DNA of 64,000 nucleotides from a virus. The position numbers were made by a program, and so were the translations under genes. The stretch is from the IMG/VR virus record IMGVR_UViG_3300037804_000252, positions 1 to 64,000 of that record. One strand, 5' to 3'. The notes beneath the pieces are model-generated. The model was given only the letters and a program-made list of their open reading frames with translations, was not told where the DNA came from and searched no databases. Below, one piece after another: positions 16,801 through 35,276 of the stretch. The number at the start of each line of letters is the position of its first letter. The first letter of the stretch is position 1.

Positions 16801-19800
16801 TAACTACCATATCTCCACTCAATGCGTTGTAATTTACATCAGAAGGAGTAAAGTATTTATTTGGTCCAGAAGCACCAACATTAACAGTCATTGTTGTATC
16901 AGTAACATCCGTTATAATCATTGAACGACCAGCGTATGGGTCAATTCCAAATCTAGGATAAGATTTAGTAGATTGGTCATTGTCCATTTCACAAGTAAAT
17001 GCGAATGAACCAGTATCTAATACGATACCTTCCCCAACACTTAATGTGTGAGTTCCAGTTGTGATTACGAAATTACCAGTTGCAGGGTCATAAGTTGCGT
17101 TGGATGGAGTCCATTCAATATTCGGACCTGATTTACCAACGTTTACAGTTATAGTATTTGTTGTTGTTGATAATATCTCTAATTTATTATTGTAAGCAGG
17201 TTGACCAACTGATGGTAATTTATGTTCGGTTTTGTTACCATCCATATCACAAGTGAATACAAACGATTCTGAATTAAGATGTATATCAGTTCCAACAGAT
17301 AAACCATGGTTTGGAATTGTCATTACAAAGTTTCCATTTGATGGGTCATAAGTTGCCGTTGTTGGTGTAAATGAACCTACTCCATTTTCCAATATATTAA
17401 TTATTGTATCAAAAGAAGATGTTACAATATTTCTAATTCCATCAGTTGCATCAGTTGAAGATGTGTATTGTGAAATATTACTCTTTTTAATAGAACCAGT
17501 AATATTACCAACAACCGTTGGTAAGTTATCTAAACCATTTTCTAAAATATCAATTACGGTTGCGAATGATGAACTTACATTATGTGTATCATTTACAGAC
17601 GCCGATAACGATGAACTAAACTGACTATTGTTTGTTACCTTAATATTGTCTATCGTGTTGTATACAACCTCTATTTCACCCTTAGAAGGTACATCTATAT
17701 ATCTTTGAGTGTCTGATAGTGGTAAAGTGTCTACGATGTTAATAATACCACTAGATGAAACATTGTTTCCATTCACATAGAATAATCTATCAGGTGCATC
17801 AAATGGTACAATAAATGTTAATGTTCCAAAAGTAGTTCCATTGTTTGTTATACCACTTGTATATTGAAATTCAGTACCAGATTTTCTTTGTGTTTTAATA
17901 TAGAAAGGTTGTCTTTCATCTGGATTTATACTTCCACCATCTACTATATTTAGAGAGTTAACAGAGAAAGTATATAGTTCTCCTCTTTTTAGAGTAAGTG
18001 TTGGGTCTTTAATTCCATCATCATAAGAACCACTATCTTCTGGTAAGTTTTCTCCATCAATGTCATCAAAACTTGATAATTGATTTTTATTAAAATAAAA
18101 TGCATTGTAGTTACTATCTAAGGTAACCACTTCAAAATAAGTTGAAGCAGTTGATGAACCACTTAGTAAAGAACTTCCAGTTATTCCAAATTCTATTATA
18201 TCAGAAATACTAGCAAATGAAGATGAGACTTTATTAATTTCTGTTGAAGATGCCGTTACTGATGCTGTGTATTGTGAGTTATTATTAAATTTAATATTTC
18301 CATCAGTATTTTTTACAATAGTAATATCATTAGGTATATCTACACCTATTACAGTTTTTACCAAATTATCTCCATAAGAATCTTTTGGTATACCAACTGT
18401 TGATATAGGACTACCCTTTGAATCTGTTCCTACTGTTTCTTCAGTAACTATGGATGAACCACTTTCAATTATTTTTATTACAGTTTCATAGTTACTTGAA
18501 ATACTTTCAGTATATACGTTATCAAAACTTGTACTACTAGTTATTTGATTTCTACCACTTGTGTTTATGGGATTGGTTGTAGTCCAATCAATATCACTTG
18601 AATTTGCTGCTATAGCACCCAACACATTAGTGTCACCATATCTTATAATATCTTCAATAATACCAAATGACTGAGATACTATTTGTATTTCTGTTTCTCC
18701 ACCACTAACTGAACTCGTTGTTGGTGTATATGATGTTACTCTTATATTACCATCGGTGTTTAGAACAATCTGTGGTGTACTAATATTATTCGATAATACT
18801 ATTTGTCTTAAAAACCCTTGAGAGTATCTAATACCCTCTAATGTTTCTTCTAACTGAGTTGTATTAGCAATTGATGGATATAAGTAATAATATAATCCTG
18901 CTAACTCACTTCTTTCATTACCACCATATAATAAATCAGTTATTACATTATCAATAATATATCCAGTATCTCTTCTACACTTTGATTCGTTGTAAGAAAA
19001 TGTTGGATATTTTGTGTTTATATATGTAATCGTTTCGTTTTGTATTAAGGAACGATTTTTTCTTGCTAAATCAACTGCCGATTGTATTGATACCGATGAT
19101 GTTACGAATGTGTCATCGTTAACCAATTTTTGTGACAATCTTTTAGCATACTTAATACCATCTATTGTTTGTTGTTTTTGACCAGTTGTTCCATTATCAA
19201 CTGTTGCTAATGATGGATATTTGTAATAGAAGTTTCCTGCCTCTAATGTTCTTTCATTACCATCATACAATAAGTCAGTTCCAACTGCGTCAATTATGTA
19301 TCCTAAATCTCTTCTACACTTTGCTTCATTGTAATCAAAGGTTGACCAAGAAGATGATAGATACGAAATTGTTTCTTCTCTAATAAAATCTTTATTATTA
19401 AATAAAACATCATACCCATTATCAATGTCAGAATTTGTGTCTCTAAATGTTCTATTCTTTAATACATTTTCAGTAAGACCTCTAACGTATTTAATTGCTG
19501 TTAAAGTTGGGTCTTTTTGAGTTGTTGTAGCATCTGATGGATACTCATAGTAAAAAATACCATTTCTTACAGACTCTTCGTTACCACCATATAATAAATC
19601 ATGTGCTGCACCACTTACAATAAATCCAACATCTCTTTTACAAGTTTCTTGATTGTATTCAAACTCACTCCAAGAAGAAGATAGGTATTCAATAGTTTCA
19701 TCTTGTATAAAAGGTATATTGTTAATCAATAACTCATATGCGTTCTGATATTCAATGGTTGGGTTTGCTACCGAACTACTTTGTATGATGTCAGGTACGA

Positions 19801-21601
19801 TATTTGAACCTGTTCCATTGTCTAAAATATTATACACAATAGATATTGATTCACTAACACTTTGAACAAGTTCATCAGATGAAACTATATCTGTTTGATA
19901 TCGTGTTTGATTAGAAAATTTGAAACTTGCAGATGTATTTGTTATTAGTGTATCTGCGAATTTAGGTCCATTTGTTATAATATCAATAACCTCATCAAAT
20001 CTATCACCAATTATTTCTTGTGTTGTTGATGTTGCAGAAATACCACTACTATATTGGTCTACATTACCAACAAAAATTGATGCGTTTGTATTTTCGACTT
20101 GGGTATATGATGATGTTGCTACATTTCCTCTATCAATTATATCTAATAAAATTGTATAGTTTGTGTCAATAGTTGTTATATCACCAGAAGACGCAGTTAA
20201 TGAAGATGTAATTTGTGAATCACCACTAATATTATAAACCGATGCAGATGAATATCCAGTTGTACTACTTTTTGCTACCAAAGCAACTTCATTCGTATCA
20301 CCATTTTCAATTACAGATGTTACTAATCTAAAATCAGATTTTGCAATTTCTGCAACTTCTGCACTTGAATCTGCTGAGGTAAAGTATTGAGGAATTATAT
20401 TAGGGTCTGTTGCTCTATATCCATTTTCGGTATTTGTTACCAAAGGTGGTATTGCAGAAAGACCATCTTCAATAGTGTCTACAATAATTGAATAATTATT
20501 TTGTACGTTTATAAATGCGTTTTGGTTACCACCACTACCAGTAATAAATCGAGAACCAGATGCGTACATACCAAAATCACCAAACGATGTGTTTGAGTTT
20601 AGAAGTACTGCTTGTCCACCATCAATTACTTTTACTGAGTATGCGGAGAAGTTTGTAAAGAATGATACCAACTGAATGAATCCTCTACCCACAACTTGAC
20701 AACCCACACCATTTGGTGCAACCTGTGTATATGCATCAAGTACCATAGATGCAAGTGGAGAATCTGGATGGATTCTATTACCATCTACATTTAATCCCCC
20801 ACCACCAGGTGGAATTTCTTCATATGCTTCTAAAAATGAATTTTCTTGGTTCGAAATCATCGAACAGTTTTGAACATAAGGAGATGTTGTAATAAATGCG
20901 TTTGGTGCAAATGCAACAGCAAATCCTTTTGCTGATACATCTACCGATGGGAATACTCGTAAACCACCAAAAGTCATCTCTGCTAGATAACACCCACTAT
21001 TTACCCAAAATAAATCTTCATTTTCGTTTTTAGCAATAATTTTTGTTACCCTTAAACCACTTCCCCAAACAGTTGTGTTTCTTGGAAGTTCAATTGGGTT
21101 ATCTTCTAAGTAAGTACCAGTATCAACATCAATTCGGAAACCACTAAAGTTTGAACCAGTTGGTAATCCGAATCTACCATCGTTACCTGGTGTTGCGATT
21201 TCTGCTGCTTTACCAATTGTTTTTAATGGAAACTGTGGTGAACGACCATCATTATCATCACTACCTCTTGTAGCAGATACATAAATTGTTGCGTCACTAC
21301 CACCAAAGTCTTTTACTGAAATTCCACCAAACTTTTGTGTATCAACAGATATATCAGAAAATGATGCGGTTGCATCTAATCTACTTTGTGCATCCTTAAA
21401 TGATAATTGACCATCTAGTTCAAGTGAACCAGTAATTTCAACCGAACCTGTTATTCTTTGTGGTGTGTCTGGATTAGACCCAATGTTAATTGATTGAGAT
21501 ACTAAAAGTGAACCAGAAATAAATACAGAGTTATTTACGGATATCGAATCCCTAAACTCATTTATTTCTTCTATCTGCTTTTGTGGTATTAATCTAGCCA
21601 T
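7844..21601 (-). CDS. Giant virion structural protein (4585 aa): pectate-lyase-like beta-helix frame with 19 helical C-x-R-D repeats and two blocks of nested beta repeats
   Basis: N-terminal IYVSATRGSDDNDG..P.KTI.KA...GTY.E.NPI.LP beta-helix entry motif; 19 countable xCxRDxGxIxxxxxxDxxxGGN-type repeats; location next to neck genes. Confidence 0.85.
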   Translation of the reverse strand: MARLIPQKQIEEINEFRDSISVNNSVFISGSLLVSQSINIGSNPDTPQRITGSVEITGSLELDGQLSFKDAQSRLDATASFSDISVDTQKFGGISVKDFGGSDATIYVSATRGSDDNDGRSPQFPLKTIGKAAEIATPGNDGRFGLPTGSNFSGFRIDVDTGTYLEDNPIELPRNTTVWGSGLRVTKIIAKNENEDLFWVNSGCYLAEMTFGGLRVFPSVDVSAKGFAVAFAPNAFITTSPYVQNCSMISNQENSFLEAYEEIPPGGGGLNVDGNRIHPDSPLASMVLDAYTQVAPNGVGCQVVGRGFIQLVSFFTNFSAYSVKVIDGGQAVLLNSNTSFGDFGMYASGSRFITGSGGNQNAFINVQNNYSIIVDTIEDGLSAIPPLVTNTENGYRATDPNIIPQYFTSADSSAEVAEIAKSDFRLVTSVIENGDTNEVALVAKSSTTGYSSASVYNISGDSQITSSLTASSGDITTIDTNYTILLDIIDRGNVATSSYTQVENTNASIFVGNVDQYSSGISATSTTQEIIGDRFDEVIDIITNGPKFADTLITNTSASFKFSNQTRYQTDIVSSDELVQSVSESISIVYNILDNGTGSNIVPDIIQSSSVANPTIEYQNAYELLINNIPFIQDETIEYLSSSWSEFEYNQETCKRDVGFIVSGAAHDLLYGGNEESVRNGIFYYEYPSDATTTQKDPTLTAIKYVRGLTENVLKNRTFRDTNSDIDNGYDVLFNNKDFIREETISYLSSSWSTFDYNEAKCRRDLGYIIDAVGTDLLYDGNERTLEAGNFYYKYPSLATVDNGTTGQKQQTIDGIKYAKRLSQKLVNDDTFVTSSVSIQSAVDLARKNRSLIQNETITYINTKYPTFSYNESKCRRDTGYIIDNVITDLLYGGNERSELAGLYYYLYPSIANTTQLEETLEGIRYSQGFLRQIVLSNNISTPQIVLNTDGNIRVTSYTPTTSSVSGGETEIQIVSQSFGIIEDIIRYGDTNVLGAIAANSSDIDWTTTNPINTSGRNQITSSTSFDNVYTESISSNYETVIKIIESGSSIVTEETVGTDSKGSPISTVGIPKDSYGDNLVKTVIGVDIPNDITIVKNTDGNIKFNNNSQYTASVTASSTEINKVSSSFASISDIIEFGITGSSLLSGSSTASTYFEVVTLDSNYNAFYFNKNQLSSFDDIDGENLPEDSGSYDDGIKDPTLTLKRGELYTFSVNSLNIVDGGSINPDERQPFYIKTQRKSGTEFQYTSGITNNGTTFGTLTFIVPFDAPDRLFYVNGNNVSSSGIINIVDTLPLSDTQRYIDVPSKGEIEVVYNTIDNIKVTNNSQFSSSLSASVNDTHNVSSSFATVIDILENGLDNLPTVVGNITGSIKKSNISQYTSSTDATDGIRNIVTSSFDTIINILENGVGSFTPTTATYDPSNGNFVMTIPNHGLSVGTDIHLNSESFVFTCDMDGNKTEHKLPSVGQPAYNNKLEILSTTTNTITVNVGKSGPNIEWTPSNATYDPATGNFVITTGTHTLSVGEGIVLDTGSFAFTCEMDNDQSTKSYPRFGIDPYAGRSMIITDVTDTTMTVNVGASGPNKYFTPSDVNYNALSGDMVVTVGQHGLGVNRSVVLENESFAFTCDQDGDSTTHSYPRSGSDPYAEQSIPITSVGTTSHTVTNAPYNASTGDVTITITNHGFSNGDYIKLDDNSLTYTCVLDGDTVEKSYPRPGYDYPSGRWLELSNVTTDTFDINIGSSSYTNTHTFISATSDGLKRQDGTFTINVGDGGSASGSIHTFVSASNNAIKHEPQTVHTFVSASNGAVKHLPQSVHTFVRTDENSVNILPILDDNISDLIKVTSTNQVTSSISATNTEVELVSSSYATIIDVLKNGTSVLPTEILNTSASIKVTDTNIYQNVSMSVSNTEIEKVSSSFAIVLDIVENGTGSIPTIVENVNENIKVGNVGQYISSSYSGSLEDVDFVSSSFAIVTSIITNGLNSAPTLVDYTTRLTTENAIASYEIIKENIDFIQEETITYLSSSWSTASYDEEKCRRDVGFIVSGAAEDLIYNANSASVVNGRFYFENPSLAETSQINQTLDGINYASRLAQKLIQNIEFVTASQERLDTQTLLTENTEFIQNETISYLSSSWSTFDYVEITCKRDVGHIIDAVKTDVVYGGNERSVNAGEFYYLYPSSATGSQLQQTLDGIDYARRLADKVIQQTTFVTASNEVSTSHQLLRDNKQFIQDETIEYISASWSEFDYVESTCKRDVGYIIDAVATDVLYGGNERTIEAADYYFRYPSDATGSQLSQTVDAINYARRLSENIVVNTQFASAPFSRTNAYDLIFQNRNLIQTEVVEYISSSWADFEYDDVKCARDVGYILDAVTTDLLYGGNERSRVAGEFYYLYPSDATGSQLSQTVDGVKWAKSMSDNILQNKLFVTASEQKLSVASLITENKQLIQDETISYLSSSWSTFDYNESKCKRDVGYILDAVVTDFVYGGNERAVNAGEFYYLYPSDATGSQLSQTSDGISFASRLVNKLITNTTLVTASLERQATYDLLFENKSFIQDEVISYISSSWSGFEYIESKCRRDTGYIIDAVATDTLYGGNERSVTAGEFYYLFPSEATGSQLQQTVDGVRHAAGVAEKLIQNTIFTTTSLDKKQSYDLILNNKDIIQDNVIDFIDQTYPYFTYNRVKCRRDTGYIIDAVITDLLYGGNQRSVVAGIYYYLYPSEATTVQLEETIQAIRYADSVSKKLVQSELLTIPSIIKNSENNIRFTDTTQYTNSIAISGSSVSEISSSFESVIGIITDGVKSFTPEDATYNPANGDFVMTIPNHTLTKLNGLYLRPDSFVFTCDMDGNRTEHILPSVGQPAYNNRLPIKSTTTNTITVNVGKSGPNIEFNPTNATYDPSNGEFVVTVGTHSLSVGEGVVMSPESFAFTCDMDNDQSTKSYPREGIDPFAVRSIPITSVTDTTLTFNVGASGPNKYFTPTDANYNASTGDMIVTVGQHGLGVGRSVVLEDESFAFTCDQDNDATTHSYPRPGSDPYAGKSIVITSVGTTSHSVTNAPYDSATGDVTITIASHGFSNGDYIKLDDNSLTYTCVLDGNTTTKSYPRPNYDYPSGRWLEISNVTTNTFDINIGSSPYVGSHTFVSATTNGLERQDGTFTINVGDGGSASGSIHTFVSASNNAVKHEPQSVHTFVSASNGALKHLPQSNHTFKRVVNNSVSTLPFEVKNIDSKTKVNNIDQFTLSTSGTSTEVGIISSSVDLINDVIRFGTDKIPFTIAKHFQTSELDNPQNLTTSSYVTASGTYNVTDELEIVSSSVKIINDIIENGTGSLPIQISNTSNNIKVGNVEQFIGIYGGSLTEIDLVKERGSIIENVVQNGTGSLPSLVKTNSDINNLIKYTNTSQTIGSSGDRVQEKIISSSFGLIVDILNNGTSSLPNLVEYTETIDAPKSVNAYNLLKNNISFIQDETIAFLSSSWGEFDYNETKCRRDLGFIISGAAEDLIWNANSASLVNGVYYYEYPSQATGSQLQQTLDGIIYAGNMAQNIVRGRTYVTASQNVSASFELLSNNRDFIKEETIAFVSSSWSDFYYSESKCRRDTGHIVDAIATDLLYGGNQRSIIAAEYYYKYPSAAIVGGIPSENQQKDPTVTAINYIKGLVGEIVSGSTFVTSSNEVEYTYDSIRENREFIQNETVSFINAKYPNLVYNEQSCSRDTGFIVDAIATDLRWGGNQRSITAGEFYYRFPSKAISYQLDSTVDGIVYIKDLIEKIANKETLEIPQRTLNTNSNIKFFTHNQFTGSLSGSLENIAFVSSSIDLVTTIIANGTGSYETASLYGVRSTDPSTLAAYEIIKENIDFIKDETIAYLSSSWSTSSYNEEKCKRDVGFIISGAAEDLVYNSYSASIVNGKFYYEFPSEANGTGSQINQTLDGIFYASRITQNLIQNTEFVTASLEVSSSYNLIRENREFIQSESISYLSSSWSSFDYNEEKCKRDITHIIDAVSTDVLYGGNERSINAGNFYYKYPSSATNAQVDPTTTGIEYAGDLMENLVQNNIFVTASSERIAGNKTLLENREFIQNEVIAYISSSWSNFDYNEASCSRDTGYILDAVATDFLYGGNERSRTGGEYYYLYPSEATTTQVNQTTDGIKYASGISQKLVQNIEFVTASNEVSASWNLLRDNKEFIQNEVIAFVSSSWSGVYYDEDKCKRDVGHLIDATATDLFYGGNERSVTAGSYYWRYPSRATNSGVPSEENQLDPTIDGVRYAKGLSQKVIQNVEFTTPSNATLVGAELLIGNKNLIQTEVITFLSSSWSEFEYNQSKCFRDVGYIIDAVRTDMVYGGNERSLQAGRFYYYIPSVAITEQKPQTIDGIDFAKGLSENVILKNQLTRPPFNTRVSVDLLKSSKKILQGKAISYTNGAFPNFVYNEEKCYRDTGFILDAIATDLFYGGNERSIEAAKSYYNGVYGDASAVVNEQKYETADANRFLRTQFQRIVRNSPLENFGSLIITTGHDFSYSGAGVTYKALPPNQGGAGIPDPDKEITEIGGGRVFFTSGNELGDFRIGAGLVINQATGTLQGRTFSRSLFSLVTPFSLALQD

Positions 21602-25247: not shown

Positions 25248-26843
25248 TTAGATAGATGCTAAATCTTTAACATAAATCTTACCATAGAATTCTGGTCTAA
25301 CCATCTTCTTAGCGTATCTTGTCATAACTCCTCTTCTTGGAGTGAAGTTAGTTGGGTCATACACTAATGGAGTCATGATTAATGGTACATAAGGTGCGTA
25401 AACTGCTCCTGTTTCTAGGAAGTTTGAACCTCTAAATCCTAACAAGATTTCATTTGAATTCATGTAAGGGTTTTTGTACACAGTATATCTATTTGCTAGA
25501 GAACCAACAGTAGTTACACCAGCTGCGAAAGACATTGCATCTTTATCAGCAGAAACTGTAAATCCTGGGATTGATTCTAGAATAGTACACACATCAGGAG
25601 AAGCTACTACAAAGTTAGCACCACCTCTTAATGTTAATTGGTGAATCTTATTAGAAACTTTGTTAATCTTAGTTCCTAAAGTTTGGAACCAAGTATTTTT
25701 CTGATAAGCTTGTCCTGCAGTTGCAGCAGTCCATGCAGAGTTTACATACTCTTCACCAATTGTTGCTGACCAGTACTCAGTAGTCAATGCGTTAGAAGCT
25801 AACATATCTAAGATTTCTAAGTCAATCTCTAATGAGATGTAATCAGATAACATAGAAGTTAATTCAGCTTCAGCATCGATTGAGTGGTAAGCGTTAAGGT
25901 CTTGTGCCAACTCAGGAGTCCACACAGCCTTTAGTTTTCTAGTCTTAGCAACGATTGCTTCAGACTTCAATTCTAAGTCTACTTCTGGAATTGCGATATC
26001 AGCATCGATAGTAGCACCTTTTTGAGGTTTACCAGCTTCGAAGTCACCTCTATCGTAATCAGCAGGTACTCTTGAATAGTTTACTGAAATAGCGTTTTGG
26101 TCAACAGCTACTTGAGAGAATACAAACGCAGTAATGTTTGTTCCATCTTGAGAGTTGAATTGACTAAAGTTTACATCATTAGTAATGTCAGTACCAGAAA
26201 TTCTGAAACTTCTTACTGCATCTAAATCAGCGTTGTCTAATTCAGTTTTAGCGAAAGTTACTTTTTGAACATCACCTGCAGCAACTGAAGCAGAAAGTAC
26301 TGCGTCAAATCCTACATCAGCCCAAGAAGCAGAAGCCCAAGTCTGAGCACCAGTTGCAACTGAAGCAGTGTACTCATTTACAGAGTATCCATAAGAACCT
26401 GACCCGTAAAGACCACCTTGTGCAACATCAGTTGAACCTAAGTCAGCACCAGAACCACCAAATAGTGAACCACCTGATGATTTTCCACCATTAGCAGAAC
26501 CATACTTAAAGTCTAAGTAAAAAATTAGACCTGAAGGTAAGTTCATTGGTTGTACTGAAACGAATTCTTTAGAAGCAATCTCACCAAAGATTCTTCTTAC
26601 TAAAGGTAGAGCAACACCGCTCCACTCTTCAGAGTTACTTGCGACACCAGTTTGTGATGCCTCATCAAGCAATTGTTTTGCTTGGTTTTCTAAAAGAACG
26701 GCCATTGAGCCTTGTTCTTTTTGTCCTAAACCTTCTAAAAGACCAGTGTTTTCCCACTTAGATTTCAGTTGTCTTGTTTCATTCAACATTACCGACTGCG
26801 GGGTCTTGCCTTCCATTAGTTTAGATAAATCAAAATTTGCCAT
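25248..26843 (-). CDS. gp23: Major capsid protein, T4 gp23-like
   Basis: LPLVRR, VSVQPM..PSGLIFYL, AKTRKLKA.WT.ELAQDL.A.H.IDAEAEL, G..YAPYVPL, F.P..G.MTRY. Confidence 0.97.
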   Translation of the reverse strand: MANFDLSKLMEGKTPQSVMLNETRQLKSKWENTGLLEGLGQKEQGSMAVLLENQAKQLLDEASQTGVASNSEEWSGVALPLVRRIFGEIASKEFVSVQPMNLPSGLIFYLDFKYGSANGGKSSGGSLFGGSGADLGSTDVAQGGLYGSGSYGYSVNEYTASVATGAQTWASASWADVGFDAVLSASVAAGDVQKVTFAKTELDNADLDAVRSFRISGTDITNDVNFSQFNSQDGTNITAFVFSQVAVDQNAISVNYSRVPADYDRGDFEAGKPQKGATIDADIAIPEVDLELKSEAIVAKTRKLKAVWTPELAQDLNAYHSIDAEAELTSMLSDYISLEIDLEILDMLASNALTTEYWSATIGEEYVNSAWTAATAGQAYQKNTWFQTLGTKINKVSNKIHQLTLRGGANFVVASPDVCTILESIPGFTVSADKDAMSFAAGVTTVGSLANRYTVYKNPYMNSNEILLGFRGSNFLETGAVYAPYVPLIMTPLVYDPTNFTPRRGVMTRYAKKMVRPEFYGKIYVKDLASI

Positions 26844-26871: not shown

Positions 26872-28023
26872 TTATTTGATATTAGCTAATTGTTTGAATC
26901 TTTCAGCTAATGCATTTGTGTTCTCAGAAATAATGTTTTTTACTGGAGCAGTTGAAGCAACTGGTTTAGAAGCACCTTCCGATACTACTTTCTTAGTTCT
27001 TTTCTCAGTTCCTGTAAAATTCATAGATTCTGCTAACGTAGCGTAAACTAATTTTACTTCTCTAACAGATGTTGTTCTGTCTAAGTTTTCTACAACTTTA
27101 GATTTTTGCTCGTTTGTTAACGAGTATCCTCTAAACAACTTGTTAGCGTATAATAATTTTGCGTTGAGAAGGTTTACTTCATTGATAGTACCTTGTAGAG
27201 TCTTAATAGTAGCATATGCTTCTTCTAAGTCTTTTCCAAGTTCTTCGTACTTTTCTTCCATGTCTTCTTCTTCAGAGTGAATTTCTTCTTCTTCAGATTC
27301 TTCATTTACATCATTTCCGTATCCCATTTCTCTAAGGATTTCATCTAAGTCGATTTCATCATCCATGTCTTCTTCTTCTTCTTCACCTTCGTGAGAATCT
27401 TCAGAATGCACTTCTTCTTCTTCTTCTTCTTTAACTTCTTCCTCACTAGGTACTTCTTCTTCAGATTCTTCTTCAGAGTGAATTTCTTCTTCTTCTTCAG
27501 AAACTTCTTCATCATCTTCCATACCCATTTCAAGTTCTCTAATGATAGACTCTAAATCTAACTCATCATCTTCTTCAATTTCTTCTTCTTCAGAGTGAAT
27601 TTCTTCTTCTCCTTCTTCTTCAGAAATTTCAGCGTCATCAGCGTTAGTTGGGTCATCATATCCAACTCCATCCACTTCTTCTTCAGATACTTCTTCTTCA
27701 GAGTGGTCACCTTCTTCCAACTCATCACCTACTTCTGCAGTTTCTTCTTCAGATTCAGGTCCAAGTTCGGTGTGTGCGTCTGAAGCGTCTGCTGATGGTT
27801 CAACTGGAGTCTCTTCATCACCATCACCAATATCACTTGAATCTAATTCCTCTTCGATTTCTTCATCATCACCTTCCATTTCAGCTTGTAGCTTCTTTGA
27901 TAGGATTGATTGTAATCTTGGAGTAAATGCTTCCTCAAGTGCAATCTTAGCGTTAGCGATTGCAGTTTCTCTTACAGCTTTAGCATCGGCAATTGCTTCT
28001 TTTAACAATTTTGAATTTGCCAT
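26872..28023 (-). CDS. Prohead core scaffolding protein (gp22 position), extremely acidic
   Basis: Directly upstream of the capsid gene; long Glu/Asp low-complexity core with coiled-coil ends. Confidence 0.8.
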   Translation of the reverse strand: MANSKLLKEAIADAKAVRETAIANAKIALEEAFTPRLQSILSKKLQAEMEGDDEEIEEELDSSDIGDGDEETPVEPSADASDAHTELGPESEEETAEVGDELEEGDHSEEEVSEEEVDGVGYDDPTNADDAEISEEEGEEEIHSEEEEIEEDDELDLESIIRELEMGMEDDEEVSEEEEEIHSEEESEEEVPSEEEVKEEEEEEVHSEDSHEGEEEEEDMDDEIDLDEILREMGYGNDVNEESEEEEIHSEEEDMEEKYEELGKDLEEAYATIKTLQGTINEVNLLNAKLLYANKLFRGYSLTNEQKSKVVENLDRTTSVREVKLVYATLAESMNFTGTEKRTKKVVSEGASKPVASTAPVKNIISENTNALAERFKQLANIK

Positions 28024-28223: not shown

Positions 28224-28754
28224 TTATCCTTTTTTAATAACAGAATGAGTTTTTGTTGCAATCCACTGACCATCTTTAACACCAGCCATCTTAGCAGCCT
28301 TCTTTATTGCTTCAACAGTGTTTCTTGCTTTAATAGTGTATTTATTTTTTTTAGATAGTTTTACACCACTTAGATTCATATTATCAAATATTACTTCCCA
28401 TGTAGAAAATCCTTCTTTGATGATTGATTCTTTAATTTTGAAATATTTCTTAAATTCTTGTCTAACTATTTCGCCTTGGTCATTTTTAGTTTTGTTTTGT
28501 TTCAAAATAGTCTCCAATCCCTTTTCCATTTTTGGAATATTATTGTTGTATTTTTGTTTTAACATTCTGAAAATGTTTTTTGATTGTATTCTGGTATTTT
28601 CCCATTGGTCTTCGTTTACTGATTCTTTTTCATCATCAGTAGATTCATCCTTACCATCTTTTTTCTCTATTGCTTTTTGAAGTGCTGGTGGTAATTTTTT
28701 CTGAGCATCTGTTAATTCAGAAACTTGTTCTTTCATTATGTCTTTTAGTTTCAT
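28224..28754 (-). CDS. Predicted internal head protein, modular
   Basis: Leader MKLKDIMKE; linkers ESVNE and ESIIKE; lies between protease and scaffold genes. Confidence 0.65.
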   Translation of the reverse strand: MKLKDIMKEQVSELTDAQKKLPPALQKAIEKKDGKDESTDDEKESVNEDQWENTRIQSKNIFRMLKQKYNNNIPKMEKGLETILKQNKTKNDQGEIVRQEFKKYFKIKESIIKEGFSTWEVIFDNMNLSGVKLSKKNKYTIKARNTVEAIKKAAKMAGVKDGQWIATKTHSVIKKG

Positions 28755-28766
28755 ATTGTTTTTTCC

Positions 28767-29423
28767 TTATTTATTATTTTTTTGAACATGCTGAACAATC
28801 TTCTTAGCAAATGCAGGAGAAGTGATTTTAGCTATCTGAATAATAGTTTCTCTTCCATTAGGTCTTACCGATTTTGAACTTGCATGACCTTTCATATCAG
28901 GAAACTTACCATCGAGTGAATATCCATAATCACGAATATCAATTAGGTTGGAATCTTTATCAAAAATAAATCCATATGCACTTATTCTTGAATTGTAAGT
29001 TTTTCTTACGTTAAGTTCGTATCCATTGTTACCTTGTTTATCAGAACCGATAACCATTCCAAATGATTCACCAGTTTTGTTGTTTCTACCTTTGATTACT
29101 TCGGTTATTGATTTACCACCACATCCACCTGGAGTAGTTCCAGCACACCCACAACCACAATCAGTAGATTCATTTACTGATTCTTCATTCATTTCAGAAA
29201 TAACTTTTTCTCTCATTATCTCTCTTACGATTTTTCTAAGTTGTTCTTTCATCTTTGGTAATCCTTTATGTTTCGTTGCTGCAAAATCTTCAATCTCCTT
29301 TTCACTCATTCTATCAGCTATTCCTTTTATTTCATCTGAAACCTCTGAGGCTGGTATTTCACCTCGTTTGAATGCTAATGCCAATCCAAATAACTTTTGT
29401 TGTTGTTGTGATTGTGCGGGCAT
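28767..29423 (-). CDS. Predicted internal head protein with N-terminal DUF3008-like domain
   Basis: MPAQS..QQ...G.ALA.KRGE...MSEKE.EDFA.TK.KGLP recalls DUF3008; followed by ISE/ESVNE/ITE linkers and a CGCGC...GGCGG segment. Confidence 0.65.
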   Translation of the reverse strand: MPAQSQQQQKLFGLALAFKRGEIPASEVSDEIKGIADRMSEKEIEDFAATKHKGLPKMKEQLRKIVREIMREKVISEMNEESVNESTDCGCGCAGTTPGGCGGKSITEVIKGRNNKTGESFGMVIGSDKQGNNGYELNVRKTYNSRISAYGFIFDKDSNLIDIRDYGYSLDGKFPDMKGHASSKSVRPNGRETIIQIAKITSPAFAKKIVQHVQKNNK

Positions 29424-29427
29424 AGTC

Positions 29428-29892
29428 TTATAACAATTTTAATTCTTTATCTTTGTAGGTATCTGCGAAATACCATTTTTTATCTTTTTCATTGTAAAGG
29501 TAAACATATTCAGCACCAGATTGATTACCAGCATTTTTAATATAGTCAGAAACTTTATCAAATTTACCTTTCGTAAATTTTCCACCCTTTTCACCTCTAT
29601 CTCTACCATAGAAAATAGTTTGGTCTTTGCCTGGGGTTTGGAATGTGTGGTCTTCACCACCATCCATTTTTTTATTTAATGAAGAAATACCACCACCTTT
29701 ATCAACTTTAAGTAGTTGTTTGATTTTACCACCACCATAATAATTTTTTGCAATTTTACCTACCCCATCAGGATAACCATCGTAATGTACATAAGTAGAA
29801 ACAATATTTCCGCTTCTATCAATTACACCAATCTGTGAACGAGTTCCTTCGGTAATTAAATCTTCCGATAATAAGTTTTTTAATTTAATCAT
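29428..29892 (-). CDS. GTRS...YxHxDGYP-family phage protein with an added capsid-targeting-like leader
   Basis: Preferred start MIKLKNLLSE at 29892, which avoids overlap with the upstream gene; GTRSQIG...YVHYDGYP.G.G, FYGRDRGE and EY.YLY...W motifs. Confidence 0.7.
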   Translation of the reverse strand: MIKLKNLLSEDLITEGTRSQIGVIDRSGNIVSTYVHYDGYPDGVGKIAKNYYGGGKIKQLLKVDKGGGISSLNKKMDGGEDHTFQTPGKDQTIFYGRDRGEKGGKFTKGKFDKVSDYIKNAGNQSGAEYVYLYNEKDKKWYFADTYKDKELKLL

Positions 29893-29896
29893 AATA

Positions 29897-30448
29897 TTAC
29901 CTTTTTTCTCCAAGTCTTTTTTTCATAGTATCTGGGTCAATATCAGATATTTCATAATATCTACCTAAAATATGTCCCATATCTTCATACAATGAATGTA
30001 ACCTTTCATCTAATGCTCTTGCCTCAGATGCAACTTTATCAAATGACTTATCTAATTTATCTAACTCACTCATATTTCTTTTGATGGTTACGGTATCAAA
30101 CCAATCACCAGCTTCAGAAAGAGTCAAAGTTTTTGCTGCCTCAACAACACCACCTAAAGTTTCTGCAACTTGAACAATATCAGATTGTATATTCATTTGT
30201 TCTTGGAATGTTTTATAAGTAGAAATGATTTCTAAGAAATGTTTCTTAACTTCATTCGTTAGAGGTTTATTAGCTTCAATGGATTCTGATAATGAAAACT
30301 TACCATCAACAATTTTTACTTCGTTAATGTTAGTTTTTCTAATATCATTATATCCTTTAAATACATTAGTTTCTTTTTTGTTCTCAACCTTTAATTCAAA
30401 TTTATTGTTGTGAACGTAATCGTATATGTCAAAGTTTTTCTTACTCAT
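29897..30448 (-). CDS. Hypothetical helical head-module protein
   Basis: 183 aa, coupled to the prohead protease gene; DWFD and LYEDMG.ILGRYYEI motifs. Confidence 0.7.
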   Translation of the reverse strand: MSKKNFDIYDYVHNNKFELKVENKKETNVFKGYNDIRKTNINEVKIVDGKFSLSESIEANKPLTNEVKKHFLEIISTYKTFQEQMNIQSDIVQVAETLGGVVEAAKTLTLSEAGDWFDTVTIKRNMSELDKLDKSFDKVASEARALDERLHSLYEDMGHILGRYYEISDIDPDTMKKRLGEKR

Positions 30449-31035
30449 TATGCTAGTTCCGTTATAATTTCTCTCATTAAGTTTTGTGCTTTACAAAAAT
30501 CTCCACAAACATCAGTACCAATATTCTTTACTACTGATTCGTTCATTGGAGTCATAAATGCACCATGTGTAGATGGATTGGAAACAAAGTCCCAACCTAT
30601 TAGTTCAAAATCTTCACCAACTAAAAGTTTGTTATCTTTTATTGGTTGAGTAGAACCCATACCTCTTGATGAGATACCTAAAAGGATTCCTGCTCTTAAT
30701 AATTCTTTTAGAATATTACCAGAAGGAGTAGGTAAGATTTCCACTGTACCTACCACATCATCACCTTCCCAATGTATTTCTTTAATATTATGTGATACAT
30801 TCTTTAGGTTGATAACCGAAGAGTCTGGGTGGTCTAATTCACCTAATGCTCTTCTTTCTTTAATAAGTGTTTCGTACTTTTTTATTTCTCTTTGTAATAT
30901 TTCTTTTGGGTACACTCTACCATTTTGGTTTTCTGCACTTGCTCTTTGAAGGATACCTTTAACCATAGTTCTCCCTGATGAATCTTCGTTCACCTTTCCT
31001 TCAAATAAGTTTGTTTCTATTAATAGGTTCTTCAT
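30448..31035 (-). CDS. gp21: Prohead core protease, T4 gp21-like
   Basis: N.NGR.YP, ALGELDHP, VSH.I, TP.G.I, G.SSRG.GS, D.V..PS...AF motifs, including the catalytic His and Ser. Confidence 0.95.
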   Translation of the reverse strand: MKNLLIETNLFEGKVNEDSSGRTMVKGILQRASAENQNGRVYPKEILQREIKKYETLIKERRALGELDHPDSSVINLKNVSHNIKEIHWEGDDVVGTVEILPTPSGNILKELLRAGILLGISSRGMGSTQPIKDNKLLVGEDFELIGWDFVSNPSTHGAFMTPMNESVVKNIGTDVCGDFCKAQNLMREIITELA

Positions 31036-31046
31036 ATTGGTTATCC

Positions 31047-32126
31047 TTATTTATATTTTTTTAGTAAATCTGCAAATTCCTTCTTCACTCCAGAAGATAA
31101 TCTTTTATGTACACCAACTTTTGCTAACATAGAAATTGCATCTTTCATTTGTGCATTATCAATAGCAATACCAGTTCTTGTTCTTGCTAAAAGAGGTCTT
31201 TGTAAAAACATTCTTAATTCAAATGCTAAATCTTTTGAAATTTTAACTCCTTCAACTCTTGAGGTTTCACCATCTTCAACACTTCTCAATAAATCAACTT
31301 TTCCCAATCTTCTTTCAGAAATTGTTGTTTCTTTAAGAGTTACAGGATAAGTTTTACCATTAAACTCAAATTCGGTTTTACCTTCTTCTTTTGCTTTTCT
31401 TGCAGCTTGCACAAATGCTCTACCTTCGTTTACTGATTCTGCTTTAACTTTTCCAAACTTTTTTTCCATCTCTTCATAGATATCATATAAAGCACTGAAC
31501 CAATTGTTAAATTTTTTGAAATTCTTATTTCCATTCAATCCACTACCACCATCGTTCAAGTAATCTATAATAGAAACATTAGTTGGTAATCCAATCATTT
31601 TTGCAATCTTTGAGTCAAGATATCCCTTTCCATCTATATTATCTCGTATAAATCCTTTGAATATATCAGCTCCTGCGTTTTTTCCATATCCATCTATGAT
31701 TTCAGGATGTGTGTTCCATTGAGACGGTGGTATATTATCGTATAGGTTATATCCTCCTCCAAATAATTTTTTTGATGGAGTATTCCAATACTTTTTGGCA
31801 GATGATGAAAGTTTAAGATTACCTTCGTTTACTGATTCAACTTTATATGTTTTACCATCAACTTCAAATTCATCTTCACCTTTTTCTTTTGCTTTAGTAA
31901 CAGCAGCACCAAAGGCATTACCTTCGTTTTTCTTTTCACCCTTTCCACTCCATGCCTTATCAATTTTATTGAAGAACTCTTTCTTTTCTTCATCTGACAT
32001 TGATGGAATAGATTTACCTGCTTTTTCTAAAGTTTTTCTAAAAAATTTTTGATAGTCAGATTCTTCTGACATAATCTGTCTAAGTGTTTCTTTGATGTCT
32101 TCTCTGGTAATATTCATAATTGCCAA
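31047..32126 (-). CDS. Predicted internal head polyprotein with repeated modules
   Basis: Two EG.AF..A..KAKE.G..EFE..GKTY.V modules; ESVNEG linkers encoded by an identical 19-nt direct repeat. Confidence 0.7.
   Translation of the reverse strand: MAIMNITREDIKETLRQIMSEESDYQKFFRKTLEKAGKSIPSMSDEEKKEFFNKIDKAWSGKGEKKNEGNAFGAAVTKAKEKGEDEFEVDGKTYKVESVNEGNLKLSSSAKKYWNTPSKKLFGGGYNLYDNIPPSQWNTHPEIIDGYGKNAGADIFKGFIRDNIDGKGYLDSKIAKMIGLPTNVSIIDYLNDGGSGLNGNKNFKKFNNWFSALYDIYEEMEKKFGKVKAESVNEGRAFVQAARKAKEEGKTEFEFNGKTYPVTLKETTISERRLGKVDLLRSVEDGETSRVEGVKISKDLAFELRMFLQRPLLARTRTGIAIDNAQMKDAISMLAKVGVHKRLSSGVKKEFADLLKKYK
31421..31838. repeat. 19-nt perfect direct repeat taccttcgtttactgattc at 31421-31439 and 31820-31838
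   Basis: Read directly. The core ttcrtttactgattc also occurs at 28611-28625 and 29169-29183. Confidence 0.9.
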
Positions 32127-32133
32127 TCTTGTT

Positions 32134-32571
32134 TTATAGTTCCGATATCGATTTTGATATTCTATTTAACCTTTCTCTTATCTTAAAGAGATGACTTTGT
32201 GTTCGTTTCCATTGGTCTTCGGATTTTAATCCACTTTCTTGTTTAATCTTACCATACCACTTTAGAAATGATTCCATTTCTGAAAGTTGTTTGTTGATTC
32301 CTCTAATCCCTAAACCAATTTTTTGTTTTGGAGTTCCATCAGATTTTCTAAGTTCATTCCAACGATTCTCATTAACTTTAGTATAACCACCACTTACTTT
32401 AATAATATGGTCTACATCAGACTCTGCTTCATCATCAGTCCCATCGGTATCTGTAAATGCATTTGGGGTATTATAACCTGCTACATTACCAGTAGTGGTT
32501 GCCTCATCAACATCTAAGTTTTCTTGCTCTATTTCTGCAATTAAATCTTCAATTAATTCTTTCAGATTCAT
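32134..32571 (-). CDS. Predicted internal head protein
   Basis: Leader MNLKELIE...VDE, then ATTTGNVAGYNTPNAF; helical C-terminus. Confidence 0.65.
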   Translation of the reverse strand: MNLKELIEDLIAEIEQENLDVDEATTTGNVAGYNTPNAFTDTDGTDDEAESDVDHIIKVSGGYTKVNENRWNELRKSDGTPKQKIGLGIRGINKQLSEMESFLKWYGKIKQESGLKSEDQWKRTQSHLFKIRERLNRISKSISEL

Positions 32572-33515: not shown

Positions 33516-35276
33516 TTATTCATCAATCAAATTTGCGTCATCTAAGAAGTCTCCGTTTTCACTCATCAACCTTCTTTTTGCTGAAACTCCGTTAACGTAT
33601 TCTTTCGCAACTTTTTGCGTAGTTTTACTAACTTTACTTTCAGTTTTCTTTAACGCTTTTTGATTTTCTTTTTTACCAAGTGGGTCTCTCCCAAGTGGAT
33701 GTTTATCTTTTCCATAGGTGTTTCCCTCTCTTGGTCTACCACCTTTGTTTTTTAACTCAGTCTTTAATTCTTCCAATTCATCTTCAATATCAGTAGGTTC
33801 TGCTTCCATTGCAGGGTCGTTACCTTCATCCTCAATTGAACGATATCTGAACCTATCTTTTAGGTCATCAATAAGTTGTTCTTTTTGGGAATCAACTTCA
33901 TCTTCACTAAAGTTAAATATATTTTTATATGTCCAATCTTTAGATACCATATTTAGTTGTTGAATATCAGAAACCAATCTAACCTTTTCACTCCAAAGAT
34001 TTACTTTTTCTTGCTCATAGATTGTAGATGGATTAACTAAGTCTAATTCAAAATCTACCATATCAGTTCCCTCAATACCTTGAGCAGCTAAATGAGTTAC
34101 TGCAATCTTAGTTAATTCTGATATTAAAGTTCTTTGTATTCTTTCGATTGTTCTTGCGAATCTTACATCTTCTGCAGCAAGAGTTGCTTTACCATTTACA
34201 TTCTCATCATATCCCAAATATGCTTTTGGAATCTTTAGAGCTGCGAATAGTTTATTCTTTAAGTAATCGATATCATCAATAGCAGTATATTCTAAACCAC
34301 CTAATGAATCTATTTGAGTTCCACTATCACCACCCCTAACAGGTAAAAAGAAATCTTCAGTTAGGTTTTGGATATTATATTTTAAGTTGTAATCTCCAGT
34401 TCTTTTATCTACGAATGGAGTTTTTTTCATTTTACTAATAATTTTTTGCATATAGTTATCAACCTCTTGTGGAGGAATGTTACCAATATCAATTTTGAAA
34501 ACTCTCTTGTCTGGTGCTCTCATGATTCTATGAATTAACATAGCATCTTCCATAAGAGAAACTTGTTTCCAAATTCTTCTACCATTTTCAATCATTGCTT
34601 TTCCATATGGTAAGAAGTTAGTATCTGATAATAATCTAAAGTGTACTACCTCATAGTTTTCATATTCACCTTTACCTGCGGGGTCATGGTTTAATTTGAA
34701 CTTTACATAGTTTGGATTATTTGGGTCAGTATTTTCCATTCTTTCAAGTTCATAAACAGGAAGTGGTTTTACATTAAGAATACCAACACCTGGTTGAATT
34801 TCTTGTAGTAAAAAGAAATCACCATACTTTACCATATTTCGTGTCCATGACCATAGGTTAAATTCTATATTCAAAACATCATAGAAAAGGTTTTCTAGTA
34901 TTTCTTTTATTTTTTCGTTTTTTGATTTTATTTGTACAACTTCTCCAAATTCATTTTTAAGTGTACATTCATCTGCGTAGATATCTAATGCTGATGAGAT
35001 AATTGGGTCATTATCCATTGCATCATAATCTCTAAAAAGTTCTCTACGAACTTGATGGTATGCCATTGATTGAGCTGCCATCTGGTCTCCATAAAAAGAC
35101 CTTTGTAGTTTAGTGTACCTATCTCTTATATTCATAAGATTAGTACCACCTTGTTGTCTATCATCAGTATCAACAACTCTCCTTTTTCCATCTTTATCAA
35201 CCTTTACGATTGCTTGAGTAGAAAAAAGTTTTGTTAATCTTTGAAAGAATGAACTATTGTTTTGTGCTTCTGCCAT
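33516..35276 (-). CDS. gp20: Portal protein, T4 gp20-like
   Basis: LMEDAM.I.RI.RAP..RVF.ID.GN.P, EDFFLP.RGG..GT.I..L.G, DI.Y...KLF.AL.IP. Confidence 0.96.
   Translation of the reverse strand: MAEAQNNSSFFQRLTKLFSTQAIVKVDKDGKRRVVDTDDRQQGGTNLMNIRDRYTKLQRSFYGDQMAAQSMAYHQVRRELFRDYDAMDNDPIISSALDIYADECTLKNEFGEVVQIKSKNEKIKEILENLFYDVLNIEFNLWSWTRNMVKYGDFFLLQEIQPGVGILNVKPLPVYELERMENTDPNNPNYVKFKLNHDPAGKGEYENYEVVHFRLLSDTNFLPYGKAMIENGRRIWKQVSLMEDAMLIHRIMRAPDKRVFKIDIGNIPPQEVDNYMQKIISKMKKTPFVDKRTGDYNLKYNIQNLTEDFFLPVRGGDSGTQIDSLGGLEYTAIDDIDYLKNKLFAALKIPKAYLGYDENVNGKATLAAEDVRFARTIERIQRTLISELTKIAVTHLAAQGIEGTDMVDFELDLVNPSTIYEQEKVNLWSEKVRLVSDIQQLNMVSKDWTYKNIFNFSEDEVDSQKEQLIDDLKDRFRYRSIEDEGNDPAMEAEPTDIEDELEELKTELKNKGGRPREGNTYGKDKHPLGRDPLGKKENQKALKKTESKVSKTTQKVAKEYVNGVSAKRRLMSENGDFLDDANLIDE

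Follow-up and report, generated by a model that had tools for sequence, protein, structure and literature searches.

Why would a gene in the head module of a T4-like virus place a short leader in front of a small protein domain that mostly stands free in other phages? The question is raised by an open reading frame (ORF) on the minus strand at positions 29428-29892 of the window, i.e., the first 64,000 nucleotides of the virus record IMGVR_UViG_3300037804_000252 from IMG/VR, which comprises 88,699 bases with 32% G+C. The translation of this target ORF begins with MIKLKNLLSEDLITE and continues with GTRSQIGVIDRSGNIVSTYVHYDGYP, the domain part reading GTRSQIG...YVHYDGYP, as was described in the original prediction, which had been made from the sequence of the window. 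The reading preferred here, to which we assign a probability of about 0.72, is that the target is the pro-form of an internal head protein, equipped with a T4-style capsid-targeting propeptide that would be cut off after Glu15 by the prohead protease.

The target ORF is separated by four bases from the genes on either side, located at 29897-30448 (upstream) and 28767-29423 (downstream). The ATG at 29892 is the start used in most of the listed homologues, which have the same M-I-K-L beginning. There is no Met or alternative start near Gly16, and because the first Met beyond the leader is Met76, the leader must be translated. Glu15 is encoded at 29848-29850, Gly16 at 29845-29847, Thr17 at 29842-29844, and Arg18 at 29839-29841. 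The predicted mature part of 139 residues contains 21 Lys and is devoid of internal [LI]-x-E sites. Such sites are the substrate of the prohead protease gp21 of phage T4, which cuts after L/I-X-E as described in section 2.5 of PMC9026906, and the gene for a related protease of the S77 family is found two genes upstream of the target.

Residues 16-151 of the target match positions 2-123 of the 128 positions of the phrog_1987 profile (E 2.1e-23). Since Gly16 is aligned with profile position 2, profile position 1 corresponds to the Met of the free members of this family, and Gly16 to their residue 2. The N-termini were tabulated for fetched proteins with a family profile match over at least 100 positions. 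Of the 413 domain hits obtained, five from rows P0001, P0002, P0122-P0124, and P0325 were omitted, which leaves 408 instances; three of these lack an aligned Thr (two fragments or miscalls and one internal hit). All 177 free forms have Met at -1, Ser, Gly, or Ala at +1 (88, 61, and 28 cases, respectively), and Thr at +2, and Arg follows Thr in 171 of them. In the extended forms, an [LIV]-x-E motif occupies positions P3-P1 directly before the domain in 223 of 228 instances, with I (157), L (57), or V (10) at P3 and E at P1 in 223, followed by G (139), S (55), or A (33) at P1'. Thr comes next in 228/228 and Arg thereafter in 220/228. The invariance of Thr among all 405 tabulated instances follows from the construction of the table, but T17 is also invariant in the alignments. 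The length of the upstream part varies from 4 to 415 residues (median 36), with an outlying case in which the domain starts at position 636 of a 755-aa protein, behind 635 residues. An earlier tabulation of 262 proteins gave E at P1 in 206 of 209 cases. When an independent sample was seeded from free forms, M-[GSA]-T-R was the start of 112 of its 113 proteins, the remaining one having MKIM before STRS. Six members from cultured phages start with MATKAR, MATRSR, MGTRSR, MGTPAC, MATRSN, and MGTRSR. Although the 228 extended instances are not independent events, because the sequences are related, the junction is far from chance at the level of the family. Mature position 4 is Ser in the free forms and Trp in 104 of the 228 extended forms.

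Met aminopeptidase removes the initiator Met when residue 2 is small. Since the other members of the family are acidic cytoplasmic proteins that start with Met-[Gly/Ser/Ala]-Thr-Arg, cleavage after Glu15 would restore the terminus that is otherwise given by removal of Met. The original prediction had given an M-[GSA]-T-R-S start for stand-alone members and had proposed that a cut after ITE yields G-T-R-S, the same terminus as in the Met-processed free homologues. This start agrees with both samples described above, and the proposed cut is supported by the N-termini of the free forms, by the L/I-x-E motif, and by the S77 protease encoded nearby. The extensions are diverse, but they end in a cleavage motif at the domain boundary, and uncleavable ones are essentially absent (five of 228). 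Diverse extensions as a common feature of homologues had been named in the original prediction as a refutation, which these cleavable extensions do not provide.

Four independent sequence signatures indicate that the domain may have been converted into capsid cargo, as had also been proposed: synteny, a shared leader, loss of internal sites, and a reversal of charge towards basic. Among 34 relatives on viral contigs, 19 are encoded in the same head module; 18 of these have the protease in the locus and one (L026) has the scaffold and the capsid protein. Leaders of the type M-I-K-L-x-x-L-x-E are present on two further, unrelated ORFs of the window and on several non-homologous ORFs of related head modules; in the related loci, a variant extended to ~40 aa and ending in I-T-E is likewise found before several non-homologous proteins. 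The proteins in related loci that carry a leader include homologues of the 183-aa ORF of the window, and one capsid protein there starts with the related sequence MNLGNILNE. In a non-redundant set of 270 domains, the 114 extended ones contain on average 0.22 [LI]-x-E sites, with none in 82%, compared with 0.65 in composition shuffles, whereas the 156 free ones contain 1.79, compared with 1.36 in shuffles. The extended forms have a median isoelectric point (pI) of 9.2, a net charge of +5, 12.7% Lys, and 0.1% Cys; in the free forms, these values are 5.3, -6, 7.4%, and 1.7%, respectively. In most free forms, Cys precedes the conserved His (Y-C-H-W-D-G-Y-P), a position taken by Val or Gly in extended forms. 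Compared with the target, the free phrog_1987 proteins have the same domain, with the conserved T, R, H-x-D-G-Y, S, Y-x-R-D, Y, and W and the same predicted topology, but they are leaderless, acidic, and rich in [LI]-x-E, have Cys beside His, and are encoded outside the head-maturation cassette.

Further evidence on the N-terminus comes from long proteins. Among 32 proteins of more than 294 aa, the domain starts at residue 2 in 16 and is located internally, after [LIV]-x-E, in 14, four of which contain two tandem copies of the domain, each behind L-I-T-E. The remaining two are an N-terminally truncated protein and P0466, a protein of 1,186 aa that contains both a phrog_1987 domain and an S77 protease domain according to a precomputed Pfam list. 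Hence, every one of the 16 uncleaved multidomain proteins has the domain at its extreme N-terminus. In several long free forms (P0449, P0450, P0448, P0462, and P0446), the N-terminal domain is fused to pentapeptide repeats, to DUF7222, or to a DUF4240-like stretch (25.5 bits, just under the cut-off of 27 bits); none of these fusion partners points to a function. A polyprotein of ~760 aa has the domain from residue 105 onwards, preceded by V-I-N-E and followed, ~10 residues past its end, by L-L-T-E and then G, and the rest of the polyprotein is divided by further [LIV]-x-E-[GAS] sites. A complete phage genome of 256 kb with this polyprotein form encodes an S77 domain elsewhere. In P0125 (384 aa), the C-terminal K-E-L-K-L-L of the domain, where the window protein ends, continues with E and then G, so that the domain is flanked by sites at both ends. 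A fusion with the DUF3008 gene located downstream of the target in the window was considered for P0125 and ruled out (best E 1.9). In locus L004 (5948-7459), the frame of a target homologue with 93% identity is open upstream into a 504-aa ORF with its own MIKLKNLLYE leader; this ORF keeps the internal leader MKLKDLLSEKLINE before GTRS and, thus, comprises two leader-cargo units in one reading frame.

Together, these comparisons suggest that the family probably tolerates only N-terminal extensions that can be precisely removed. Whether a free N-terminus is also required for function, as the original prediction had supposed, is a matter of about even odds. Three findings suggest such a requirement: uncleavable extensions are essentially absent, the uncleaved multidomain proteins all begin with the domain, and residue 1 is G, S, or A in both contexts. 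The interpretation offered in the original prediction is therefore partly supported, its proposal of capsid cargo being well supported by the comparative evidence.

An AlphaFold2 model of the target, based on 135 sequences, had a mean predicted local distance difference test score (pLDDT) of 93.6 and a predicted template modeling score of 0.86. Residues 1-20 were weakly predicted (block means of 61 and 77), and the domain had pLDDT values of about 95-98. In its topology, β-strands at residues 19-24 and 29-35 are succeeded by two helices and a short strand; then comes a long loop, which contains a short helix (95-99), and finally a strand, a helix, and two C-terminal strands. The model of a free member, P0183, showed the same topology with a pLDDT of 97.3 and a mean of 93 for its first ten residues. 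All conserved residues of the family are present in the target, i.e., T17, R18, Y34, H36, D38, G39, Y40, G65, S70, Y95, R97, D98, Y131, and W140, while the free forms additionally conserve one His and the sequence R-x-E. This set of residues looks like a catalytic or ligand-binding site. From the register of the first hairpin, with a four-residue turn as read from the DSSP string, Thr17 would be positioned opposite His36, and Gly16 near Tyr37 and Asp38. This would place the invariant Thr and Arg (mature positions 2-3) at the base of the first hairpin, beside the His-x-Asp-Gly-Tyr motif, and the N-terminus therefore probably belongs to the functional site or borders on it. No structure in the PDB was matched by either model in a Foldseek search at E ≤ 0.001, and a wide search with VIA-align gave best Z scores of 4.2 and 3.9 to unrelated chains, below the noise guide of the tool, a result that does not prove a new fold.

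In the mechanism that we propose, residues 1-15 would act as a capsid-targeting propeptide by which the protein enters the scaffolding core inside the prohead. The S77 protease would then cut behind Glu15 in I-T-E, as the motif, the synteny, and the comparative data suggest. By analogy with the internal proteins of T4, the basic protein of 139 residues starting with Gly-Thr-Arg-Ser would stay with the packaged DNA and would probably be ejected into the host along with it. The T4 internal proteins have propeptides of 10-19 aa that target them to the core and are removed (PMC9026906, sections 2.5 and 2.6), and the capsid-targeting sequence (CTS) has been proposed as an evolutionary route for loading varied proteins (PMC9026906). 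In T4, Asp as the final residue of the CTS is reported to prevent processing while leaving targeting intact (PMC9026906, section 2.6). The internal proteins of T-even phages are described as diverse, with the CTS alone being conserved, and as lysine-rich and embedded in the DNA, which their lysines contact (PMC3012670). Like IPI, IPII, and IPIII of T4, as they are portrayed in these sources, the target is small and basic, is encoded by a phage with a gp21-type protease, and carries a short N-terminal propeptide ending in L/I-x-E, in this case 15 residues ending in I-T-E. Also, one type of leader is found on unrelated cargo both in T4 and in the lineage of the window. The likeness of the leader to the CTS of T4 is one of format only, and that to the internal proteins is known here from sequences alone, packaging and ejection being predicted. 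Unlike the T4 internal proteins, the target is encoded inside the head module, and its cargo domain shows neither sequence similarity nor detected fold similarity to anything solved. It also differs from them in having thousands of free-standing relatives, and, as a consequence, the direction and the cost of recruitment might be read from sequences.

Other phages process head-loaded proteins in comparable ways. Alt of T4 is trimmed by gp21 at both ends (PMC9026906, section 2.6). The target would resemble the Alt described there as a protein meant for the next host cell that is packaged into the head and trimmed by the prohead protease, and the polyprotein relatives, with [LIV]-x-E on both sides of the domain, recall this cutting at both ends; however, the target is much smaller than Alt and shows no detected similarity to it. 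In phages phiKZ, 201phi2-1, and SPN3US, propeptides of inner-body and ejection proteins are cut after S/A-x-E by a gp21-related protease, and the sites are redundant (PMC9026906, section 3.2). The target leader with its two sites, LSE10 and ITE15, is comparable to the propeptides with redundant sites in this account, but in the target family P3 is L, I, or V, and these phages belong to a different group.

Several observations weigh against the proposed processing and delivery of the target. In the window protein alone, the depletion of sites is not significant (no [LI]-x-E versus 0.5 expected from its own composition; P = 0.60) and, therefore, this depletion is a signal at the family level only. 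Two of the five extended instances without the motif have Met directly before the domain, which probably represents the true start, two have I or A at P1, and the fifth, P0466, has L-I-E directly before Thr (T-S-A-R), where a cut would not regenerate [GSA]-T. In a FastTree tree of the 270 domains, changes between the free and the extended state occur at least eight times and the extended forms are mostly found in one region. Because of this clustering, the junction counts are strongly non-independent and could represent one or a few ancestral events; the tree was built from a short domain, and the conclusion on the number and direction of recruitment events is limited to "few, mostly one region." Furthermore, some T4-like phages that encode an S77 protease keep free forms (P-HM1, G004, and G005), and the protease, thus, does not dictate the extended form. 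The restriction of P1' to G, A, and S may just reflect the preference of the protease. In 10 of the 34 viral loci, the domain is located inside the polyprotein of ~760 aa beside replication genes (helicase, primase, and single-stranded DNA-binding protein), outside the head module. Finally, we infer cleavage, packaging, and ejection for a lineage that is uncultured.

A doubtful but serious possibility is that the leader is a cleaved capsid-targeting propeptide but that the exact restoration of the native terminus is functionally meaningless, the junction going back to one or a few ancestral fusions that put the leader in place of the start Met. As the first strand of the domain begins at residue 2-4, any leader would then have to abut the domain. 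The concentration of the extended forms in one region of the tree fits this explanation, as do the frequent start of small phage proteins at their first structural element and a preference of the protease for small residues at P1', the site in the capsid protein being E followed by A. It is more difficult to reconcile with an exact junction behind upstream parts varying from 4 to 415 residues and including tandem duplications, and with the invariance or near invariance of Thr and Arg at mature positions 2-3. Met excision also permits small residues other than Gly, Ser, and Ala at position 2, whereas the free forms use only these three (177/177), and the N-terminal location of the domain in 16 out of 16 uncleaved multidomain proteins is not accounted for either. 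Self-maturation in the manner of N-terminal-nucleophile hydrolases, by an autocatalytic cut between [GSA] and Thr that creates an N-terminal Thr nucleophile and makes the Glu motif secondary, appears very improbable. The Thr is invariant in the family, a Gly-Thr junction resembles that in the processing of proteasome β-subunits, and in P0466 the cut by the protease would fall immediately before Thr. However, the domain measures only ~125-140 aa, the predicted mature residue 1 is G, S, or A rather than a conserved nucleophile, and the [LIV]-x-E motif in 223 of 228 junctions together with the loss of internal sites is explained by a prohead protease and not by self-cleavage. Also, no N-terminal-nucleophile hydrolase chain was among the structure matches of the two models, which at the Z scores mentioned above is weak evidence and not excluding.

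The location of the gene between those for the protease and the scaffold-like protein might rather suggest a structural component of the scaffolding core that is degraded or expelled at maturation and not delivered as an effector, particularly as core proteins of T4 also have L/I-x-E sites (PMC9026906, section 2.5). We regard this as very unlikely, since core proteins are cut into many fragments, whereas the phrog_1987 domain has lost its internal sites and is predicted with confidence to have a compact fold, and since the family is mostly free-standing in phages with other head types. Least probable is that the leader is an artefact of the choice of the start codon or an export or membrane signal. 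A longer alternative start is available at TTG 29913 (call P0002, TTG/ATG, 175 aa), where the ORF would overlap the upstream gene, but there is no start near Gly16, the next Met being residue 76. The leader is charged and amphipathic, not hydrophobic, and it is conserved over dozens of homologue clusters and shared with other head proteins.

Regarding the function of the delivered protein, our working guess is that the domain, as an enzyme or a binder, engages some host target in the early phase of infection, in counter-defence or takeover, and that this effector would be delivered ready-made in the lineage of the window and expressed after entry in others. A more elaborate version, unlikely in its entirety, combines all elements. 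In it, an enzyme or binder of unsolved fold would have its α-amino end, Thr2, and Arg3 in the active site beside His-x-Asp; the leader would both load the protein and silence it, as in a zymogen, and the protease would arm it for injection before phage gene expression. The switch to this state would have occurred more than once, each time leaving an exact junction, site loss, and charge reversal.

phrog_1987 is large and uncharacterised, and it seems to be restricted to phages. It comprises at least 2,409 representatives at 50% identity (E ≤ 0.001), and a profile of free members retrieved at least 6,246 clusters at E ≤ 0.001 among 8,000 scored candidates. Members from cultured phages, all annotated as hypothetical, are found in T4-like cyanophages, Streptococcus prophages, Rak2-type jumbo phages, and Caulobacter phages; examples of free members are PHM1_059 of Prochlorococcus phage P-HM1, GAP32_010 of Cronobacter phage GAP32, gp083 of Caulobacter phage CcrColossus, and Javan599_0023 of a Streptococcus phage. 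Since the family is mostly free-standing in phages with other head types, including Streptococcus siphophages with Clp-type proteases and jumbo phages, its function is probably unrelated to head assembly. In Streptococcus suis prophages (Streptococcus phage Javan599; L001, 2228-3348), the gene for the free homologue has an antitoxin/Doc toxin pair on one side and the portal gene on the other, which is a moron-like location where the structural module begins. Pfam searches at E ≤ 1 with the target and three free members gave chance-level rows only, an NCBIfam search gave no match, and a profile search of PDB sequences returned only repeat-protein rows at E 0.3. In BFVD, the target model matched only uncharacterised phage proteins, among them that of GAP32 (E 6e-12). 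Neighbours in the ESM Atlas were unnamed viral clusters only; the nearest named clusters, Prok-E2_D (15% share; 0.85) and RecE (0.81), are rated as leads only. The motif strings and the PHROG number were found in no paper (full text, supplementary files outside scope), and the family is absent from the titles and abstracts of the papers listed by searches on the CTS and prohead proteases, which deal only with T4, giant phages, P1, and the cyclic oligonucleotide-based antiphage signaling system (CBASS).

The target belongs to a T4-type head module in which every gene is on the minus strand (Table 1). The order of the genes is portal, three ORFs without a family, S77 protease, 183-aa ORF, target, the DUF3008-containing ORF, 176-aa ORF, scaffold-like ORF, and capsid protein. 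Among cultured phages, the closest capsid proteins occur in Flavobacterium phage vB_FspM_immuto (51.5% identity) and Microcystis phage Mel-JY01, and the close relatives of the target are all metagenomic, from marine and other sources. Since even the nearest cultured capsid proteins are only distant, the window derives from a distant, uncultured T4-like lineage. At about residue 61 of the capsid protein, L-[LV]-[DK]-E followed by A is found in 9/9 aligned sequences, and the conserved QLLDE followed by A is likely the site where its propeptide would be cut.

Table 1. Positions in the window of the target, its parts, and other genes of the head module.
Feature	Position	Strand	Basis or remark
Whole ORF, leader and phrog_1987 domain (P0001)	29428..29892	minus	154 aa + stop; window translation
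Leader (propeptide), residues 1-15, MIKLKNLLSEDLITE	29848..29892	minus	Two [LIV]-x-E sites, LSE10 and ITE15
Predicted prohead-protease site I13-T14-E15, cut after Glu15	29848..29856	minus	Family-wide [LIV]-x-E and the motif as described in PMC9026906
Predicted mature protein, residues 16-154, start G-T-R-S	29431..29847	minus	139 aa, 15.5 kDa, pI 9.3
H36-Y-D38-G39-Y40-P41 motif, right behind β-strand 2	29770..29787	minus	H, D, G, and Y at least 90% conserved
Portal protein (Portal_T4)	33516..35276	minus	E 4e-72
Prohead serine protease (Peptidase_S77, PF03420, gp21-like, phrog_207), presumed processing enzyme	30448..31035	minus	E 8e-29, above Pfam cut-off
145-aa head-module ORF, unrelated to target, similar leader MNLKELIEDLIAE	32134..32571	minus	ORF list, leader comparison
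176-aa head-module ORF, unrelated to target, similar leader MKLKDIMKEQVSE	28224..28754	minus	ORF list, leader comparison
Acidic 383-aa scaffold-like protein, 14 [LI]-x-E sites	26872..28023	minus	"Scaffold" from position and composition only
Major capsid protein (Gp23 family)	25248..26843	minus	E 6e-77; QLLDE then A at about residue 61

Some other features of the window were noted. The S77 protease starts with MKNLLIE-TNLFE-G, and L-I-E at its residues 5-7 has a counterpart close to the N-terminus of T4 gp21, an L-I-E that is discussed in section 2.6 of PMC9026906 as a possible element for self-cleavage or targeting. The ORF downstream of the target carries DUF3008 at its N-terminus (residues 3-58, E 2e-14), beyond which [LIV]-x-E sites are found at 68, 77, 85, and 108 besides a Cys/Gly-rich stretch (C-G-C-G-C-A-G...C-G-G). 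As this ORF has no leader of the MIKL type, a role in targeting or core binding may fall to DUF3008 itself. A motif of ~35 aa, G-N/R-A-F-...-K-A-K-E-x-G-x-x-E-F-E-x-x-G-K-T-Y, occurs twice in a 359-aa ORF of the head module (31047-32126, minus strand). It is also present directly behind the L-L-T-E site that follows the phrog_1987 domain in the 758-aa polyprotein of locus L019 (6722-8998), which suggests that it is a second small module shuffled among head-internal proteins. Two giant ORFs are located at 7844-21601 and 47910-57398, both on the minus strand. The one of 4,585 aa has no Pfam match at E ≤ 0.001, and the other, of 3,162 aa, has a C-terminal Gp53-like tail-fibre domain (E 1e-10) and, at residues 2713-2831, a sub-threshold Intein_splicing match (28.3 bits versus a cut-off of 35.8).

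Leader-directed loading of proteins into T4-type heads is textbook knowledge, but, to our knowledge, very few cargo families are known, and nearly all of these are from coliphages. phrog_1987 would add one very large family that exists in two states, i.e., free and acidic versus leader-bearing, basic, and purged of protease sites. The combination of leader, junction, site depletion, and shift in pI may constitute a recipe to recognise capsid-delivered proteins in uncultured T4-like phages from sequence only, and the leader itself could serve as a natural packaging tag in phages of marine Bacteroidota-type hosts. The strict terminus provides a concrete hypothesis on the active site of a fold that has no solved relative, and the two states point to a family function that is probably needed at the very start of infection.

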